From the NCBI RefSeq assembly GCF_003334255.1, contig NZ_QOWU01000085.1: a DNA stretch of 10,225 bases, one strand, 5' to 3'. The notes beneath the pieces are model-generated. The model was not told the DNA's origin, ran no database searches, and saw nothing but the letters and a program-made list of their open reading frames with translations. Shown in pieces: positions 609 to 9,897 of the stretch (within the stretch, counting starts at the first letter, position 1; each line of letters opens with the position of its first letter). The position numbers were made by a program, and so were the translations under genes. The DNA comes from Escherichia coli (GTDB taxonomy: Bacteria; Pseudomonadota; Gammaproteobacteria; Enterobacterales; Enterobacteriaceae).

Positions 609-1691
609 ATGCGTAATTACGCAACAATTTCACCTCAGTTCTGGTTAGGCGATACAGGGCGAAAACTAAGGAAGTCTGGTCCGGAATGTATGGTAGTGGC
701 GTTGTATATGATGACCTCGCCTCATTCCAATATGCTGGGCCTTTATTACCTGCCTGTTTTGTACATTGCTCACGAAACCGGACTTGCTCCTGAAGGGGCT
801 TCTAAGGGGCTTCAAATGGCTTGCGAGGCTGGTTTTTGCAGCTATGACCATGATTCTGAGGTTGTATGGGTGCATGAAATGGCAGCATGGCAGGTTGGTG
901 AATCGCTGAAACCTGGCGATAACCGTTGTGCTGGGGTAAGAAATGAATATTCCGCGTTGCTGGAAAATCCTTTTTTATCATCCTTTTATGATAGATATAA
1001 GGATGATTTCCACCTGGATGTCAGACGTGAATCATGTCGGAAAATTGAAGCCCCTTCAGAGCCCCTTTCAAGCCAAGAACAGGAACAGGAACAGGAACAG
1101 GAAAGGGATAAAACCCTTCTGGTCCATGGCGAAAAAATCGCCACGGACCCACAGGGGGATTTTTGTCCTGTTCTGACTGAACGTCCAGGACCAGATGGCA
1201 CGACACCGGAAGCAGATTCCGGGCGTTGTGTGCAGCAGGTGCTGATCGTCGAACCGGAGCAACAACGCCAACCGCAGCAGCCTGAAGCCGATTCCGCGAT
1301 GAGCGGGAAGCCGATTGGGTTAACCCGGGCGATGCCGGGACCGTCTGCGGGACGAGTTGATTATCCTGACGTGTTCGAACGGGTCTGGCGTGAATATCCG
1401 CATCGGGCAGGGTCAAACCCGAAGAAATCCGCGTTCAATGCCTGGAGGGCCAGATTACGCGAAGGGGTGTCACCGGATGTCGTGCTGGATGGCGTGAGGC
1501 GTTACGCAAGATACCTGGAGGCTACCGGGAAAGCGGGAACTGAATTTGTTCAGCAGGCATCGACGTTTTTTGGCCCGAACAGGAATTTCGAAAATCCGTG
1601 GTCGCTGCCGAAGGCTGGCGCAGTCAGCCTGCGTTGCGTGAATCACATTTCTGAACCGGACACCGAAATTCCGCCGGGTTTCAGGGGGTAA
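609..1691 (+). CDS. Phage replication initiation protein (O-like functional analogue; resembles the so-called replication protein 15 type of lambdoid prophages)
   Basis: 360 aa with SD GAGGGG 4-5 nt before the ATG. It follows cII and is immediately followed by a DnaC-like loader gene. It contains an internal AT-rich segment with inverted and tandem repeats (origin-like) and an acidic (QE)n linker between two domains. The family assignment is from memory only. Confidence 0.6.
   Translation: MRNYATISPQFWLGDTGRKLRKSGPECMVVALYMMTSPHSNMLGLYYLPVLYIAHETGLAPEGASKGLQMACEAGFCSYDHDSEVVWVHEMAAWQVGESLKPGDNRCAGVRNEYSALLENPFLSSFYDRYKDDFHLDVRRESCRKIEAPSEPLSSQEQEQEQEQERDKTLLVHGEKIATDPQGDFCPVLTERPGPDGTTPEADSGRCVQQVLIVEPEQQRQPQQPEADSAMSGKPIGLTRAMPGPSAGRVDYPDVFERVWREYPHRAGSNPKKSAFNAWRARLREGVSPDVVLDGVRRYARYLEATGKAGTEFVQQASTFFGPNRNFENPWSLPKAGAVSLRCVNHISEPDTEIPPGFRG
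977..1007. repeat. Perfect 9-bp inverted repeat (atcatcctt / aaggatgat) with 13-nt AT-rich loop, inside the replication gene
   Basis: Read directly: atcatcctt-ttatgatagatat-aaggatgat, in an AT-rich stretch (about 960..1010) flanked by short direct repeats tcctttt(tt)at. Confidence 0.7.
1077..1106. repeat. Hexanucleotide tandem repeat (GAACAG)x4 plus one degenerate unit, in frame within the replication gene
   Basis: gaacag gaacag gaacag gaacag gaaagg, translated as the QEQEQEQE linker of the 360-aa protein. Confidence 0.9.
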
Positions 1692-1697
1692 TCAGCC

Positions 1698-2438
1698 ATG
1701 AAAAACATTTCGACAGGAGGGATTCTTGAACGGGTGCGCCGTCTGGCACCACCGCACGTGGCAGCACCGTTCCGGACGACCGACGAATGGCGGGAATGGC
1801 AACTGGCTGAGGGCCGGAAGCGCAGCGAGGAAGTTAACCGCCAGAATCACCAGACGCGGGTTGAAAAAATCCTGAATCGTTCGGGCATCCAGCCGCTTCA
1901 CAGGAAGTGCTCATTCGGGAACTACCGGGTGCAGAACGACGGTCAGCGCCATGCTCTGAGCCAGGCGAAATCCATTGTCGATGAATTGATGACCGGTTAT
2001 ACAAACTTCGTGTTCAGCGGGAATCCGGGAACCGGAAAAAATCATCTGGCGGCGGCTGTGGGTAATCGTCTGCTGAAGGCCGGTAAATCCGTGATAGTGG
2101 TCACCGTGGCGGATGTGATGAGCGCGTTACATGCCAGCTATGACGACGGACTGTCAGGGGAAAAATTTTTGCGTGAACTGTGCGAAGTGGACCTCCTGGT
2201 TCTTGACGAAATTGGCATCCAGCGTGAGACGAAAAACGAGCAGGTGGTACTGCACCAGATTGTTGACCGCCGGACGGCATCACTGCGCAGTGTCGGGATG
2301 CTGACAAACCTGAATCATGCCGCAATGAGCACGCTTCTTGGTGAGAGGATTATGGACCGGATGACCATGAACGGTGGTCGTTGGGTGAATTTTAACTGGG
2401 AGAGCTGGCGGTCAAACGTTGGACGTCAGGGTATGTGA
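1698..2438 (+). CDS. DnaC-like replicative helicase loader (AAA+ ATPase, IstB/DnaC family)
   Basis: 246 aa with Walker A GNPGTGKNHLAAA and Walker B LLVLDEIG. The start is 7 nt after the stop of the initiator gene, with SD AGGGGG upstream. This is the classic position of the lambda P analogue in phi80/Rac-type replication modules. Confidence 0.85.
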   Translation: MKNISTGGILERVRRLAPPHVAAPFRTTDEWREWQLAEGRKRSEEVNRQNHQTRVEKILNRSGIQPLHRKCSFGNYRVQNDGQRHALSQAKSIVDELMTGYTNFVFSGNPGTGKNHLAAAVGNRLLKAGKSVIVVTVADVMSALHASYDDGLSGEKFLRELCEVDLLVLDEIGIQRETKNEQVVLHQIVDRRTASLRSVGMLTNLNHAAMSTLLGERIMDRMTMNGGRWVNFNWESWRSNVGRQGM

Positions 2439-2463
2439 GAATTTTTGACGAGGTAAATTTTCG

Positions 2464-3234
2464 ATGGAAACCGTATTGCATGCACTGAAAGCGATGGGAA
2501 AAGCCAATTCTGTTGAACTGGCGGCGCGGCTTGATATCAGCCGTGAAGAAGTTCTCAACGAACTGTGGGAGCTCAAAAAAAATGGCGTTGTTGATAAAAC
2601 GGGTCACACCTGGTTTCTGGCTGTCGAAGGTGAAGCCGGGGTAACCGAAGAGCGGCCAGTAAAATCTGAAACACAGGATATGCTGACCGAAGAGGTCGCT
2701 CCAAAAGTTAGCGCTGACATGATGATTGAGTTTATCTCTCAGGAGGGGGCTAAAACCTGTGAAGAAATAGCGGGTAAGTTCGGAGTTACCACTCGCAAGG
2801 TTGCTTCCACGCTGGCGGTGGTAACCGCAACGGGGCGGCTGGCACGCGTTAATCAGAACGGTAAATTTCGTTACTGCATGCCGGGGGGTAATTTACCAGC
2901 AGATCCGAAAACCGCGCCGGTAACGGAAAATGATGGTAAGGCCTTTCCTCAGCCAGCAGGTGCTGCGTTACCAGTCCGGGAAGCCGCAACACAGGAAGAA
3001 ATTAAAACAGAAACTGTGGCGGACATTGTGCAGCCGTTGCCATCGTTTACCGAAACGCAAGCAGATGAGCTGATTTTTCCGTCCCTTCGCAGGGCAAACC
3101 TGGCGCTGCGCAGGGCGAAAAGTGATGTTCAGAAGTGGGAGCGAGTCTGCGCCGCGCTGCGGGAGCTGAATAAACACCGGGATATTTTCAGTTCGATTGC
3201 TGATATTCCGGTTCATTCACCGACAACAAAGTGA
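2464..3234 (+). CDS. Hypothetical phage protein with two winged-helix-like N-terminal modules
   Basis: 256 aa, ATG with GAGG 10 nt upstream. Two similar HTH-like segments (about residues 1-55 and 85-135) are followed by a low-complexity linker and a basic helical C-terminus. No family recognised. Confidence 0.6.
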   Translation: METVLHALKAMGKANSVELAARLDISREEVLNELWELKKNGVVDKTGHTWFLAVEGEAGVTEERPVKSETQDMLTEEVAPKVSADMMIEFISQEGAKTCEEIAGKFGVTTRKVASTLAVVTATGRLARVNQNGKFRYCMPGGNLPADPKTAPVTENDGKAFPQPAGAALPVREAATQEEIKTETVADIVQPLPSFTETQADELIFPSLRRANLALRRAKSDVQKWERVCAALRELNKHRDIFSSIADIPVHSPTTK

Positions 3235-3249
3235 TCTCCGGAGGTGCTT

Positions 3250-3681
3250 ATGACAAGAGCATTTACACCAGAAGAGCGGGAAAAAATTAAGGGGCTGATC
3301 GTGGAGTTCGTACGCCTTAACGGACGAGGCACGATTCGGCAGTTATCGGATGAAATTGGTGTCAGTCATGCGTCTGTCGGTCGTTTATGCATGGAGCTGG
3401 CCGCCAGTGGTGATGTTTACAATTCCGGTTACGGAGTATTCCCGTCTGAACAGGCTCGTAAGGACTGGCAAAATGCCCGCAAAAAACTCTCAAGGGCAAA
3501 GTCGAAGAAACCGGTTGTCGTTGATCCAGACCTTATCCGGGCATTACCAGATGGGGAAATACGGCGCTACGACAGACGCTACAACACAATTTGTCGCGAG
3601 TGCCGTAACAGCGAAACGATGCAGCGTGTGCTGGCATTCTGGCGAGGGAGTGCAGAGGGATTGATGTTCTCCCCGTCGTGA
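3250..3681 (+). CDS. Hypothetical HTH-containing phage protein
   Basis: 143 aa from ATG 3250 with SD GGAGG 5 nt upstream (the track ORF starts 6 nt earlier at a GTG). The N-terminus IRQLSDEIGVSHASVGRLCMEL is HTH-like; the C-terminus has a CxxC pair. Confidence 0.55.
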   Translation: MTRAFTPEEREKIKGLIVEFVRLNGRGTIRQLSDEIGVSHASVGRLCMELAASGDVYNSGYGVFPSEQARKDWQNARKKLSRAKSKKPVVVDPDLIRALPDGEIRRYDRRYNTICRECRNSETMQRVLAFWRGSAEGLMFSPS

Positions 3682-3690
3682 ATGACGGGG
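3671..3690. terminator. Hairpin between convergent genes (ccccgtc-gtgaat-gacgggg), overlapping the stop codon at 3679..3681
   Basis: 7-bp perfect stem with 6-nt loop, read directly. There is no clear U-tract on either strand, so its terminator function is uncertain. Confidence 0.35.
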
Positions 3691-3713
3691 GCTTACGTGT
3701 TCAGAAAAGTGAT

Positions 3714-4388
3714 TCATATAGAGGCTGAATCTGATCTTTTTTGTTCACGTCTGGCTTCCACCATTGCAGGCAGAGTGAAGGCGTAGACTAAAAACATTTC
3801 GGTAAAACTCAGGATCTGGCTTGCCTCAATTGGTGTGAAAACTTCATCTGTATGAACTGCTTTATTGGCATCAATTCGTACAATATGAGCCCATTCCTTC
3901 ATCTGTTCAGTGATCAGGCCTTTTTTGTAAATCATCTGAATACGTTGCGACAGCGATTCTTTTCCTGCTTCATCGCCGAGCAGTTTTTTCGTGGAGATAT
4001 CGAGGACTCTGCGACAAAGAATAACCACTGTGTCGTACCGCCTCCTCTGTAAATCCTCTTTTGCCTCAACAAAAGTACGGTCTGCAACCGGGGGCGTATA
4101 TTCTGGTGCGGTAATTTTTTTGACCACAGGATAGATCTTGCGGAAACGGTACTGGCTATTTCCTGAAATCAGAATATCGAGGTCTTTTTTCTGGCTTTCC
4201 GCCATGGGACCGTGATAGTGGTCTGATGGGATTTCAACAATAGCAACACCTCCTCGATGACAACTTCTGCATACAAAAGCGACGTTAAAAAAAGGTGTTT
4301 TTTCAATTTGTTTTTCGGCAAATGCCTCAATAACAGCTCGCTCTTTTAAACAGTGCGGGCATGTGATATCAAAGGAGACTAAACCCAT
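3714..4388 (-). CDS. Zinc-ribbon / DUF4145-like protein, candidate single-gene defence (abortive-infection-type) factor
   Basis: 225 aa from the ATG at 4388, with SD GAGGAA 5 nt upstream on the minus strand; the track ORF extends to 4460 without any SD. The N-terminus has CPHC...CRSC (4-Cys ribbon). The C-terminal ~100 aa (RRVLDISTKKLLGDEAG...IVRIDANKAVHTDEVFTPIEASQILSFTEMFLVYAF) matches my recollection of the DUF4145 consensus (R..GN.aaH followed by EA...L). It is on the opposite strand to flanking phage genes and in visibly lower-GC sequence. Confidence 0.7.
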   Translation of the reverse strand: MGLVSFDITCPHCLKERAVIEAFAEKQIEKTPFFNVAFVCRSCHRGGVAIVEIPSDHYHGPMAESQKKDLDILISGNSQYRFRKIYPVVKKITAPEYTPPVADRTFVEAKEDLQRRRYDTVVILCRRVLDISTKKLLGDEAGKESLSQRIQMIYKKGLITEQMKEWAHIVRIDANKAVHTDEVFTPIEASQILSFTEMFLVYAFTLPAMVEARREQKRSDSASI

Positions 4389-4632
4389 GGATATTCCTCG
4401 CGAAATTAAAGAAATTAACGAAATCATTGAGGTTACTGATCGCCCCGAGTTTACCCTCATGCGTCGTTATGAAACAGGAACCGACGAACAAAAATACATC
4501 ATGGTTGCAGCATTGGCTGTGATGGCGATAGAAAGGGAGCGAAGGGAAAAGGACGTAATGGTTATTCCTGAGAGAAATGATTCACCGGATTTGAGATGGC
4601 AGGAGCCGGAGTGGGATGTGGTAATCCGGTGA
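4387..4632 (+). CDS. Small acidic hypothetical protein (81 aa), divergent from the DUF4145-like gene
   Basis: ATG at 4387 with SD AGGAG 9 nt upstream, ending at a GC hairpin shared with the convergent antitoxin gene. Its start codon overlaps the minus-strand start inside the palindrome CCATGG. No family recognised; it could be spurious. Confidence 0.35.
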   Translation: MDIPREIKEINEIIEVTDRPEFTLMRRYETGTDEQKYIMVAALAVMAIERERREKDVMVIPERNDSPDLRWQEPEWDVVIR

Positions 4633-4653
4633 TTGATATTTCTCTGGGGTAAA

Positions 4654-4674
4654 GCGCCGCCAGAATGACGGCGC
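4654..4674. terminator. GC-rich hairpin (gcgccg-ccagaatga-cggcgc) between convergent genes
   Basis: 6-bp GC stem read directly. On the minus strand it is followed by TTTACCCC, so it may terminate the toxin-antitoxin transcript; the U-tract is weak. Confidence 0.3.
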
Positions 4675-4686
4675 GGTAGTGGAGAG

Positions 4687-4995
4687 TTAAACGAAGCGGA
4701 TCTGGAGTTTTTTCCCTGTAGCACGGGCGAATTTTTTCAGTGTGGCAAATGATGGGCCGCTTGTACCTGATGCAAGATTGCTTTCCATTCTGGTTATCGC
4801 AGTCGCTTTTGTTCCCATACGTTCAGCAACTTCAGCCTGGGTTAAGCCAGCTTCTTTTCGTGCTGCCAGCATTTCATCAAGTAGTGCGAATTCATCGGCG
4901 ATGGCGTCGTATTCTGCTTTTACTGCGGGGTTAGACAACATTTTTTCTACCATATCATCGTGTGTCATGGTAGGTGGGGTACGTTTACCAGTCAT
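4687..4995 (-). CDS. HTH (XRE-like) antitoxin of a type II toxin-antitoxin pair
   Basis: 102 aa with a strong SD AAGGAGG 6 nt upstream on the minus strand. The HTH GLTQAEVAERMGTKATAITRMES is preceded by a helical N-terminal region. Its start overlaps the 3' end of the upstream toxin gene by 11 nt. Confidence 0.8.
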   Translation of the reverse strand: MTGKRTPPTMTHDDMVEKMLSNPAVKAEYDAIADEFALLDEMLAARKEAGLTQAEVAERMGTKATAITRMESNLASGTSGPSFATLKKFARATGKKLQIRFV

Positions 4996-5326
4996 GCTTA
5001 ACCTCCTTCATTCTGGTTTCAGCTTTTCTAAGCTCGGCAGGTGGAGTTTTTTGCGTTTTCTTTACAAAGCTATGCAACATAATGATTCGCTTTCCTTTTA
5101 GCGTGCAGTAAAAAACACGCCCTATGCCTTCCGAGCCCTTAAGGCGGATTTCAAACAAACCGTCGCCAAATGCCTCTGTATGCGGGGAACCAAGATTAGC
5201 TCCGTAAATACGCATTTTCTCCGTGTACCGAATGTACCGGGCTTGTAAGGTCTCAGGAAGAGAAAGGATCTCAGCTTCAACCTCGTCACTGTAGTATTCG
5301 ATAATGTAGTTCATGAGAGTAAACAT
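4985..5326 (-). CDS. RelE/ParE-superfamily toxin (Gp49/HigB-like) of a type II toxin-antitoxin pair
   Basis: 113 aa from the ATG at 5326. The C-terminal half GRVFYCTLKGKRIIMLHSFVKKTQKTPPAELRKAETRMKEV fits the Gp49/HigB-type pattern. The toxin-first gene order and 11-nt overlap with the antitoxin are typical of HigBA-type modules. The GTG-initiated 42-codon extension in the track ORF is not expected for this family. Confidence 0.8.
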   Translation of the reverse strand: MFTLMNYIIEYYSDEVEAEILSLPETLQARYIRYTEKMRIYGANLGSPHTEAFGDGLFEIRLKGSEGIGRVFYCTLKGKRIIMLHSFVKKTQKTPPAELRKAETRMKEVKHDW

Positions 5327-5356: not shown

Positions 5357-5386
5357 TTGACGACAACACATATCCGGGATTATATT
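5357..5386 (+). promoter_or_regulatory. Sigma70-like promoter (TTGACG-N17-TTATAT) on the + strand, back-to-back with the minus-strand toxin promoter
   Basis: ttgacg at 5357..5362 and ttatat/tatatt at 5380..5386, read directly. On the minus strand TTGTCG-N17-TATATA sits just upstream of the toxin ATG. Confidence 0.4.
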
Positions 5387-5448
5387 CTTCGCACGCCAGC
5401 AAAATCTGGCGTCGGGATTAGGAACCCCGGATAGAAACCGCGACAGAG

Positions 5449-5470
5449 ACACGCCGCGAGCGTGTTTTTT
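5449..5470 (+). terminator. Intrinsic terminator (acacgc-cgcga-gcgtgt followed by TTTTT)
   Basis: 6-bp stem, 5-nt loop and T5 tract, read directly. It lies about 60-80 nt downstream of the + strand promoter, which would delimit a short transcript. Confidence 0.55.
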
Positions 5471-5633
5471 ATTGTCGTATGCACACGCACATCTGAATTA
5501 TGGTGGGGCGTATAGGGGAGCTGAAAAGCTCGCCGGTTGGTTTCCCGGTAGTTCCTAACCCTGTACGTCTCGCCACCCGATGATTAGGAACCTGACGGTG
5601 GTGATAGTTTAGAAACCACTCGAGGGCGTCATT

Positions 5634-6305
5634 ATGACAACTCAAGTTTCTGTTGAAACACTCTCCACGATTACTTACAAGCAGATCCCCGTTATCACTA
5701 CCGAACTTTTGGCGCACCTTTACGGCACAGAAGCTATTCGTATTCGCCAGAATCACCACGAAAACAAAGGTCGTTTCATTGAGGAAAAACACTTCTTCAA
5801 ACTTGAAGGTGAAACTTTACGTGAGTTCAAGCACAGAGTAGCTTTTAACTACTCTGTGAAAATTGCCCGTAACGTTCGCTCCCTCATCCTATGGACAGAA
5901 CGCGGCGCAGCCCGTCATGCAAAAATGCTCGAAACCGATCGGGCGTGGGAAGTGTTCGAAAAACTGGAAGACTGCTATTTCAGCCAGGGAAAAACAACAC
6001 AAACCGAACAGCAGTCGCAGATTCAGCCACAATTCACAGCCGAGGAAATCATCCTCCTTTGCTACATGCAACTCTGGATGGAAAAAGCCCAGGACCTTAA
6101 CAAGCAGCTGTACCCCATAATGAAAGAGCTGAACTCCTCATACACGAACAAGCTGTATGACATTGCGTTTGAGACTATCTACATGGTGACGAAGAACAGA
6201 GACGCGCTACTAAGGGAGGTAACACGTCTCGACATGTCAAGTTCCGTTATCCAGCGGGCCATGCCAATGCTGAAAAGCCTGCGGGCAAGACAATTTGAAT
6301 TCTGA
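5634..6305 (+). CDS. Roi-like DNA-binding protein (ORF6N-type N-terminal domain, antirepressor-like)
   Basis: 223 aa with SD GAGGG 7 nt upstream. The N-terminal region (TELLAHLYGTEAIRIRQNHHENKGRFIEEKHFFKLEGE...LILWTERGAARHAKMLETDRAWEVFEKL) resembles the ORF6N/Roi-type domain as I recall it. It sits just before ninB, as roi-like genes do in HK022-type nin regions. Confidence 0.55.
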   Translation: MTTQVSVETLSTITYKQIPVITTELLAHLYGTEAIRIRQNHHENKGRFIEEKHFFKLEGETLREFKHRVAFNYSVKIARNVRSLILWTERGAARHAKMLETDRAWEVFEKLEDCYFSQGKTTQTEQQSQIQPQFTAEEIILLCYMQLWMEKAQDLNKQLYPIMKELNSSYTNKLYDIAFETIYMVTKNRDALLREVTRLDMSSSVIQRAMPMLKSLRARQFEF

Positions 6306-9068: not shown

Positions 9069-9383
9069 TCCAAACTGAGCCGTAGCCTCTGGGTGTCCTG
9101 AATTCATCAGTGATAGTTACGCTGCGGCCTTCTACATACGATTTTTGTGAAAAGCGGGTGGCAAGAGGCTGCGAAATTTTTAAATACCTCACAATTCCAC
9201 AGCTTGATGATTGTCTGGCTGCCGGAGAATTTGTTAAAAATTGCATCGCGTGGTGAATCCCCCTCAGCGGCGGGGCATCTGGCAAAGTGTATGATCCAGC
9301 GAACATGCAAATTCAGTAGCCAGGCTGAATTTACCGGGAGGCACCTGGCACCATGCGACAGACAGAAATTAGGCTATACTTCA

Positions 9384-9406
9384 GCCCCTCTCCGGAGGGG
9401 CTTTTC
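9384..9406 (+). terminator. Intrinsic terminator of unit 1 (gcccctc-tccg-gaggggc followed by TTTTC)
   Basis: Perfect 7-bp GC-rich stem, tccg tetraloop and T tract, read directly. Confidence 0.75.
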
Positions 9407-9596
9407 TGTGCAGGATGTGTCACAGTTTCCTGAATTCTGAGTACTGTCCTGTTACTCAGGGTGCTATATTTTCTGACGTGATGAAAGTCTGCCGGAAGGC
9501 GGAACGTATCGGAAATGACCCAGTAGAGAAAACGTTGACTCAGATACCGATGCTGAGTTACCGGGAAACCGGCATCACATGACCGCTATCCTTCCA

Positions 9597-9619: not shown

Positions 9620-9866
9620 ACTGCAGAAAACAGTTTTCCCGTAAAATGCCACGTTACTCACAATTCAGGCTGGCGATTATTGTCTGGCCAGCGGGAAGTT
9701 TGTTAAAAAAATATGGCATGGTGAATCCCCCTGTGCGGAGGGGCATATCAGCGACAGGTGTTTGGTCACACCCCTTATCCTTTCTGGTGCGGGTTCAGGT
9801 GCTGATACTGAACTCACCGGGAGGCACCCTGCACCATGCATGAACGGTACATAGCGCTACTCTCCA

Positions 9867-9890
9867 GCCCCTCTCCGGAGGGGCTTTCTT
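9867..9890 (+). terminator. Intrinsic terminator of unit 3 (gcccctc-tccg-gaggggc followed by TTTCTT)
   Basis: Stem and loop identical to the unit 1 terminator, read directly. Confidence 0.75.
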
Positions 9891-9897
9891 GTTGGAT

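Follow-up and report, generated by a model that had tools for sequence, protein, structure and literature searches.

A RAZR-like zinc-ribbon HEPN protein, predicted to act in phage defence, and its overlapping divergent partner gene in a lambdoid prophage of Escherichia coli

The defence protein PD-T7-4 came from a functional selection in Escherichia coli (Vassallo 2022, PMC9519451) and now bears the name RAZR (ring-activated zinc-finger RNase; Zhang 2026, PMC13017515). According to the latter study, RAZR consists of a Cys4 zinc ribbon at the N terminus and, at the C terminus, a DUF4145 domain, which is a divergent HEPN RNase with the catalytic residues R146 and H154 (R-x7-H); the substitutions R146A and H154A abolish defence. 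RAZR functions as a single gene and acts by abortive infection: it is activated on assembly around ring-shaped phage proteins and cleaves single-stranded RNA non-specifically, while the zinc-finger domain, for which the comparator was the RPB9 ribbon, fixes trigger specificity (PMC13017515). The placement of DUF4145 in the HEPN superfamily, with zinc-ribbon fusions listed, goes back to Anantharaman 2013 (PMC3710099). Here, we analyze a stretch of 10,225 nucleotides from E. coli (assembly GCF_003334255.1, contig NZ_QOWU01000085.1; hereafter, the window) and, within it, a minus-strand gene at 3714..4388 that encodes a zinc-ribbon and DUF4145/HEPN protein (the HEPN gene and the HEPN protein). An original prediction made from the sequence of the window took this gene for a candidate undescribed single-gene defence factor, with an architecture that it could not assign to a named system. 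The combination of a Cys4 ribbon and a DUF4145 HEPN domain is, however, the published architecture of RAZR/PD-T7-4, and the single-gene description is doubtful, since next to most family members there is a small, conserved gene whose start codon overlaps that of the HEPN gene, and which the original prediction missed.

The HEPN gene, with its stop codon at 3714-3716, encodes 224 amino acids (aa); the open reading frame (ORF) was correctly predicted, and the length of 225 given for it counts the stop. In RefSeq, the coding sequence is annotated as “DUF4145 domain-containing protein” (WP_032144013.1), and the protein is 100% identical in E. coli G1/2. PHROG 1305 spans its full length (E 1e-63). 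The N-terminal domain (residues 1-86, 4131..4388 on the minus strand) is the presumed sensor and contains the predicted four-cysteine ribbon, with C10 and C13 in CPHC and C40 and C43 in CRSC, the codons of which lie inside 4260-4361. An alignment of 29 relatives (37-71% identity) has all four cysteines without exception, and 109-123 of 125 full-length representatives (50% identity) retain them. A profile of the family weakly matches the RPB9 zinc ribbon in a search of PDB (E 0.23), and the L44 ribbon is matched weakly as well. A proline-rich linker joins this domain to the C-terminal HEPN domain (residues ~100-222, 3723..4091, minus strand), where Pfam DUF4145 (PF13643) is found at residues 118-197 with E 8.1e-9, so the predicted combination of a ribbon with DUF4145 is confirmed. 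The peptide IVRIDANKAVH (residues 169-179) includes the predicted catalytic motif R171-I-D-A-N175-K-A-V-H179 (R-x7-H; codons at 3852..3878, minus strand), which is invariant in the alignment of the 29 relatives; R171, N175 and H179 are kept in 120, 122 and 124 of the 125 representatives, respectively.

In an AlphaFold2 (AF2) model built from the family alignment (mean confidence score, pLDDT, 89.5), the N-terminal domain is rich in beta strands and the C-terminal domain is helical. The N-terminal elements are strands at residues 4-6, 20-27, 33-40 and 46-52, a helix at 61-68, and strands at 72-74 and 81-86. The C-terminal domain has the hallmarks of the HEPN superfamily (Pfam clan CL0291), namely a four-helix core with the R...H pair after the third core helix, and the HEPN-MNT toxins 5yep and 7ae2 are among the best fold matches of the model. 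It had been rightly noticed that the x7 spacing between R and H exceeds the canonical x4-6; the original prediction for this reason made no claim of HEPN identity, but RAZR has exactly the same spacing (R146...H154). As a single sequence, the HEPN protein had no phmmer match in PDB up to E 10. Two damaged copies of the gene were seen: one is interrupted after approximately codon 125 by an IS3-family insertion (E. coli S1-CAM-02-A, locus L021, 1746-3375), and another is split into two ORFs in a viral contig from IMG/VR (L121), which suggests occasional inactivation of the HEPN gene.

For the comparison with RAZR, the sequence of RAZR-Ec was rebuilt from alignments to PDB chain 9y9c_OA (PDB 9Y9C), and R146 and H154 were verified in it. 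The two proteins are similar in size (~211 aa for RAZR versus 224 aa) and in the order of their parts: a Cys4 ribbon with CPxC...CxxC, a proline-rich linker and a DUF4145 HEPN domain, with collinear secondary-structure elements. It should be noted that the AF2 model of RAZR came from a shallow alignment (pLDDT 61.6) and was used only to establish how the secondary-structure elements follow one another and as a library control. The R-I-x-x-N-x-A-V-H pattern is identical, with RIDANKAVH of the HEPN protein in register with RIVGNQAVH of RAZR, and both proteins are borne by mobile elements of Enterobacterales. In a BLASTP alignment of the linker and the HEPN domain (141 aa), the two are 24% identical (E 2e-5); the family profile retrieves 9y9c_OA from PDB with E 0.1 and the R...H pair in register; and hhalign of the two families gives a probability of 87% and E 4e-6 over 82 HEPN columns. 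At the same time, the two families are clearly distinct. The PADLOC model of PD-T7-4 (PDLC04109) gives the HEPN protein 15.5 bits (E 0.002), compared to 338 bits for RAZR-Ec; among six scanned family members, five scored 13-28 bits, and one (P0060) was not matched. Of the profile searches proposed for this protein, the one against Pfam returned the expected domain, and the low PADLOC score speaks for the original prediction to the extent that this particular family appears uncharacterised. In reciprocal scoring of 472 proteins with profile hidden Markov models (HMMs), the families were fully separate, with no intermediates (cross-scores of at most 29 bits versus 354-427). The N-terminal domain of the HEPN protein ends at approximately residue 86, compared to 65 in RAZR, and so exceeds that of RAZR by ~20 residues as well as by a helix and a strand. 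Judged from these sequence comparisons, the HEPN protein family is a sister family of RAZR, outside PD-T7-4 as currently defined.

The partner gene that was missed encodes 81 aa (ORF81, 4387..4632, plus strand; phrog_8371 with E 7e-56, annotated in RefSeq as WP_001624507.1). It runs in the direction of the phage early operon and is divergent, head to head, from the HEPN gene, so that the two start codons overlap by two bases in CATG (4386..4389; ATG of ORF81 at 4387-4389, plus strand, and ATG of the HEPN gene at 4388-4386, minus strand). Each gene carries the ribosome-binding signal of the other: the Shine-Dalgarno sequence of the HEPN gene, GAGGA (4395..4399, minus strand), is 6 nt upstream of its ATG, inside codons 3-5 of ORF81, and that of ORF81, AAGGAG (4372..4377, plus strand), is inside codons 4-6 of the HEPN gene. 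To survey this arrangement, we used 80 IMG/VR loci together with other loci, the criterion being the CATG overlap with a divergent ORF of at least 45 aa. The overlap with a homologous ORF of 54-81 aa was found for 40 of 67 distinct family members, and, of the 62 distinct family loci that were checked first, 39 had the CATG geometry, Paraburkholderia L025 and L023/L024 among them. In 36 of the 40 pairs, the small ORF shares the strand of the surrounding phage genes. For example, in a Paraburkholderia prophage, an HEPN protein that is ~36% identical has the same two-base overlap with a 60-aa ORF, which is 35% identical to ORF81 (E 4e-7). The small ORFs align over ~55 residues with the conserved motif DRPEFTLMQRYE...QK..FV.ALIGKLIEQDR, all partner ORFs tested match phrog_8371, and the differences among them are distributed over the three codon positions as 0.40/0.31/0.60, which is a coding signature. 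The possibility that ORF81 is a spurious ORF, or that the conservation is that of a 5' untranslated region, was rejected on the basis of the codon-position statistics, the PHROG membership and the conservation of the open frame. The reverse search, in which one small-ORF sequence served as the query against viral loci, found an HEPN ORF of the family abutting divergently in 20 of 21 loci. The remaining 27 of the 67 distinct HEPN genes (~40%) have no such partner; these include whole sub-branches, such as the 212-aa “MAMMSID” clade. That the HEPN gene is tolerated without the partner in so many members fits a latent effector, not a constitutive toxin.

The two genes form a cassette. As had been predicted, it lies between the replication and nin modules, with O-like, DnaC-like, DUF1627 and DUF977 genes on one side and ninB on the other; the HEPN gene is antisense to the flanking early genes, and the neighbouring toxin-antitoxin pair, comprising a helix-turn-helix (HTH) protein (4687-4995, minus strand) and a RelE/ParE toxin (4985-5314, minus strand), is there as well. 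With a G+C content of 43.3% (39% at third codon positions), the HEPN gene is the lowest among all genes measured in the window; the replication module (609-3681) has 52.7%, and the window overall has 49.1%. The predicted low-G+C islet is therefore sharp on its left side only, since the right-hand flank has 45-48%. Both hairpins that were thought to bracket the gene are real; however, the one at 4654..4674 does not flank it directly, being located beyond ORF81. The left-hand hairpin (3671..3690) is placed between the convergent DUF977 and HEPN genes at the left edge of the cassette; it has a perfect 7-bp stem and a 6-nt loop (folding free energy, dG, -14.5 to -16 kcal/mol), the stop codon of the DUF977 gene is in the loop, and homology to other DUF977 prophages stops at ~3638-3640. 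The right-hand hairpin is GC-rich, with a GCGCCG/CGGCGC core, at most 9 pairs as RNA and dG of -17 to -18 kcal/mol, is followed by TTTA on the minus strand, and marks the right edge of the two-gene cassette. Identity to three other loci (L014, L002 and L020) ends exactly at this hairpin, which is the junction with an interchangeable toxin-antitoxin module: RelE/ParE with HTH in the window, HigB with HigA in L014, HigA with ParD in L002, and TumE with HVO_A0114 in L020. All these versions are oriented toward the HEPN gene. The hairpin may be a weak terminator or attenuator of the toxin-antitoxin operon. We also observed that a 9-mer, GAATGACGG, is common to both cassette hairpins (3680-3688 and 4663-4671); this could be chance or a recombination footprint.

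The cassette is rare, and the place that it occupies is variable. The HEPN gene was found in 37 of 5426 complete E. coli genomes, whereas the adjacent DUF1627-DUF977 module was found in 2529. In other E. coli prophages (loci L010-L013), the slot after the DUF977 gene is occupied by QueH with a Dcm methyltransferase and a NgoMIV-family restriction enzyme, by QueH with hokD, or by an S-adenosylmethionine-dependent methyltransferase with an IS110 element; small ORFs are also among its cargo. This slot is a hypervariable cargo hotspot of E. coli lambdoid/Shiga toxin (Stx) prophages. Close copies of the HEPN gene are carried by Stx phages 75/02 and POCJ13 and by phages from ECOR strains. The relatives occupy several genome positions: between lysis and terminase genes in Klebsiella phage 2b and a Pantoea prophage, between int/xis and the early-left operon in an Enterobacter prophage, next to cII in Burkholderia phi644-2, and between cos and the portal gene in the P2-like phage Cartapus. 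Every locus with readable neighbours was in a temperate phage or in phage-like surroundings, and the long ORFs on either side are both on the strand opposite to the HEPN gene in 54 of 67 distinct loci. The proposed comparison of homologue neighbourhoods thus led to temperate-phage settings and to a cargo slot shared with restriction-modification, hok and toxin-antitoxin genes. The family is large, with 1595 clusters at 50% identity (E of at most 1e-3), mostly of 205-230 aa and with full-length matches. The HEPN gene behaves as a moron, with low G+C content, antisense orientation to the phage operon and a location in a cargo slot. Because of this behaviour, the architecture and the phage-borne relatives, a role in defence is a reasonable prediction.

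A separate observation concerns the relative in Cartapus. Its gp01 (locus L008, 162-860) is a 232-aa DUF4145 protein that is 26% identical to the HEPN protein and scores 26 bits on PD-T7-4; it may be intermediate between the HEPN protein family and the RAZR family. A defence hotspot of P2 has been described between the replication endonuclease and portal genes (Vassallo et al.).

Taken together, these features make it rather probable, in our view, that the product of the HEPN gene is a RAZR-like RNase of abortive infection, latent but expressed in the lysogen, carried as a moron by a lambdoid/Stx prophage and coupled to a partner that is produced from the lytic operon. On the RAZR analogy, the lysogen would make the HEPN protein at a low level and in an inactive state, and the zinc-ribbon domain of the protein would recognise a protein of a superinfecting phage. 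HEPN dimers would then adopt the active geometry and cleave RNA non-specifically, with the consequence that translation would stop and the infection would be aborted. For the resident prophage, the geometry of the two genes points to a different course: when the prophage enters the lytic cycle, transcription of the early operon would run antisense through the whole HEPN gene, and the partner would be produced. Antisense transcription and the partner could thereby silence or neutralise the prophage's own RNase, which would amount to self-immunity or regulation. A more specific version, which we put forward as a tentative idea and regard as doubtful, is that phrog_8371 is a dedicated off-switch of the RNase, produced only on transcription of the lytic operon and aided by antisense transcription over the HEPN gene, that blocks triggering of the prophage's own effector by its own ring-forming proteins, orphan copies such as the one in prophage ST865 being anti-defence factors directed at this RNase family in other lysogens. 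If true, this would be a two-part defence with built-in self-immunity, undescribed for RAZR-type systems. As for the expression of the HEPN gene itself, transcription of the adjacent toxin-antitoxin operon, which is on the minus strand as well, may read through the weak hairpin at 4654-4674 into it.

Several observations weigh against the reading of the HEPN gene as a latent RAZR-like effector coupled to a partner. The sequence similarity to RAZR is limited to the HEPN core and the linker, and the zinc-ribbon domains do not align. The residues of the higher-order interface used by RAZR for ring assembly are V21, D179, D180 and R184 (PMC13017515); BLASTP pairs D179, D180 and R184 with V201, Y202 and L206 of the HEPN protein, of which Y202 and L206 are invariant in its family. 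With these residues replaced, ring-scaffolded higher-order assembly is not to be assumed for the HEPN protein, although it may use another interface. In a Foldseek search of the HEPN model against PDB, 9y9c_OA was not among the 50 best matches, although the chain was in the library; this negative is weak, because the deposited RAZR structure relies, for its HEPN part, on an AlphaFold model that was fitted into density of low resolution. No sigma-70 promoter with at least 9/12 matches was found within the window upstream of the HEPN gene, and in a comparative promoter scan of the relatives only a weak, inconsistently placed candidate recurred. The partner had no match in Pfam, PADLOC or NCBIfam and no recognisable domain, and its similarity to the RFX1 winged helix (E 0.14) was not significant. 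The PHROGs label of the HEPN family is “DNA binding protein”. RNase activity, phage resistance and expression of the HEPN protein are all predictions made by analogy.

The same data can be read in other ways. The HEPN gene could be a RAZR-like single-gene defence factor, with ORF81 an ordinary gene of the early operon that is joined to it only by recombination junctions outside the pair. This would agree with the fact that RAZR works alone (PMC13017515) and with the ~40% of distinct members that are partnerless. It would also agree with the presence of the partner without the HEPN gene in E. coli ST865 and in locus L125, which indicates that the linkage could be partly historical. The homology between ST865 and the window starts exactly after the shared start codon and stops at the 4654-4674 hairpin, so the genes are separable by recombination, and the stretch that holds the Shine-Dalgarno sequence of the HEPN gene is also present in ST865. 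We nevertheless consider this explanation unlikely: the overlap and a homologue of the small ORF are seen again beside HEPN proteins of no more than 32-52% identity, in both Enterobacterales and Burkholderiales, and in neighbourhoods as different as the pR operon in the window, a YqaJ recombination operon in L025 and the immunity region in L023, and the pair is intact in all but one of the loci found by the reverse search. Another explanation is an addiction or regulatory module of the toxin-antitoxin kind, in which a constitutive HEPN toxin and a small antitoxin or repressor would serve prophage maintenance, not defence. The HEPN domains of HEPN-MNT toxins, which include 5yep and 7ae2 among the fold matches, speak for it, as do the basic tail and the faint winged-helix resemblance of the partner and the location of the cassette next to other toxin-antitoxin modules; the IS3-disrupted and split HEPN genes could reflect a cost. 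However, divergent genes with overlapping starts form no operon, so that the usual co-expression of toxin and antitoxin is impossible; the partner is, by its orientation, on the strand that is silent in lysogeny; and the stability of 27 of the 67 distinct HEPN genes without it argues against toxicity of the protein alone, as for RAZR. We therefore regard an addiction module as improbable. Least probable of all, with a very small chance of being correct, is a regulatory or nucleic-acid-binding protein that serves the phage in its own life cycle, its HEPN-like domain having a role other than defence. The PHROG 1305 label would fit this, and zinc ribbons, here with weak RPB9 and L44 profile matches, often bind nucleic acid; the label, however, is an automated annotation with no tested function behind it, the predicted catalytic R, N and H are nearly invariant in the 125 representatives, and the gene is rare cargo of a variable slot, antisense to phage operons and differently positioned in the genomes of different phages.

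If the prediction of a latent RAZR-like RNase holds, RAZR-type immunity, with a zinc-ribbon sensor and a DUF4145 HEPN RNase, gains a second, large family, which annotation based on the PADLOC PD-T7-4 model scores too weakly to call. Most of the family is found in temperate phages, among them Shiga-toxin phages of E. coli and Shigella, and, under the same condition, it could shape the superinfection of pathogenic lysogens by phages. The conserved partner is a handle on the question of how a prophage with an abortive-infection RNase survives its own induction, and it may yield natural inhibitors of HEPN RNases. The conserved overlap of the divergent starts by two bases is in itself unusual as an arrangement of genes, and it makes the expression of both genes mutually antisense.

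The window as a whole is from a lambdoid prophage of E. coli, of which it represents the early-right region, and its segment 3600-4750 is 100% identical to E. coli G1/2 and related strains. To the left of the cassette, on the plus strand, there are a cII-like gene (149-445), an O-like replication gene (609-1691), a DnaC-like gene (1698-2438), a DUF1627 gene (2464-3234) and a DUF977 (“Ren-like”) gene (3244-3681). The O-like gene is an intact ORF of 360 codons in the window; in the G1/2 prophage, which is otherwise identical, its annotation gives a frameshift (L001, 5999-7092). To the right, beyond the toxin-antitoxin pair, the plus strand contains isrK and C4 RNAs (5393-5580), an ORF6N antirepressor gene (5634-6305) and, from 6360, ninB, ninE, DUF1364, rusA, ninH and a Q-region gene. 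The RNAs are Rfam matches at the gathering score (isrK small RNA, sRNA, at 5393-5470 and C4 antisense RNA at 5496-5580), preceded by a 10/12 sigma-70 promoter at 5357-5386 and followed by the ORF6N antirepressor gene; together with the antirepressor, 5357-5580 looks like a c4-ant (immI-like) control module of the P1/P7 type inside a lambdoid prophage. Downstream of the Q-region gene, there are two tandem copies of the STnc100 sRNA family (9218-9411 and 9687-9896, plus strand; 139 and 130 bits). A tRNA scan of the window found no tRNA genes.

We found no experimental test of the HEPN protein family in the literature, and its place among other described systems is as follows. DS-38 (HEP2, WP_001313577.1) is a validated E. 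coli defence protein that, like the HEPN protein, combines a zinc finger and an HEPN domain in one polypeptide (DefensePredictor, bioRxiv 10.1101/2025.01.08.631726, PMC13092281); according to its authors, only the HEPN domain of DS-38 aligns with PD-T7-4. Identity of the two proteins was rejected in a comparison by description, the gene of DS-38 having 1101 nt (366 aa), compared to 224 aa for the HEPN protein; WP_032144013.1 is absent from the DefensePredictor tables that are in text form, five of which were available in part only. An HEPN-MNT system was also rejected, since the HEPN gene has no nucleotidyltransferase neighbour, unlike the toxins 5YEP and 7AE2, which have an MNT partner. The pair differs from type II toxin-antitoxin systems in general in that the HEPN gene and ORF81 are divergent with overlapping starts and many HEPN genes are partnerless. 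In BxaP (PMC10799925) and, where present, in Ishtar (bioRxiv 10.64898/2026.07.06.735840), DUF4145 is N-terminal, and the partners are different. HepS, the HEPN abortive-infection protein of the Gifsy-1 prophage (PDB 9OIK/9OIJ), is without a zinc ribbon. The similarity of its HEPN domain to the HEPN protein is much weaker than that to minimal HEPN domains. We know of no overlapping-start partner for HepS.

With respect to self-immunity, the comparison is with BstA, a prophage abortive-infection defence with cognate self-immunity that spares its own lytic cycle (PMC8585504). The likeness is in the proposed logic of self-immunity and is a functional analogy only, the BstA protein being unrelated to the HEPN protein. 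The aba of BstA is reportedly a DNA element and not a protein. The closest described system is RAZR, and the two families also differ in their gene neighbourhoods. We observed that genuine RAZR genes (loci L127-L131) share 8 nt with the 3' end of a gene that has the same direction and encodes a tyrosine-integrase-family protein of 535-538 aa; the overlap was seen in E. coli and in loci of a second RAZR homologue, which suggests a dedicated, integrase-linked islet. RAZR genes are co-directional behind a 535-aa integrase and have no divergent small ORF, whereas genes of the HEPN family are antisense inside prophages and usually have an overlapping-start partner.

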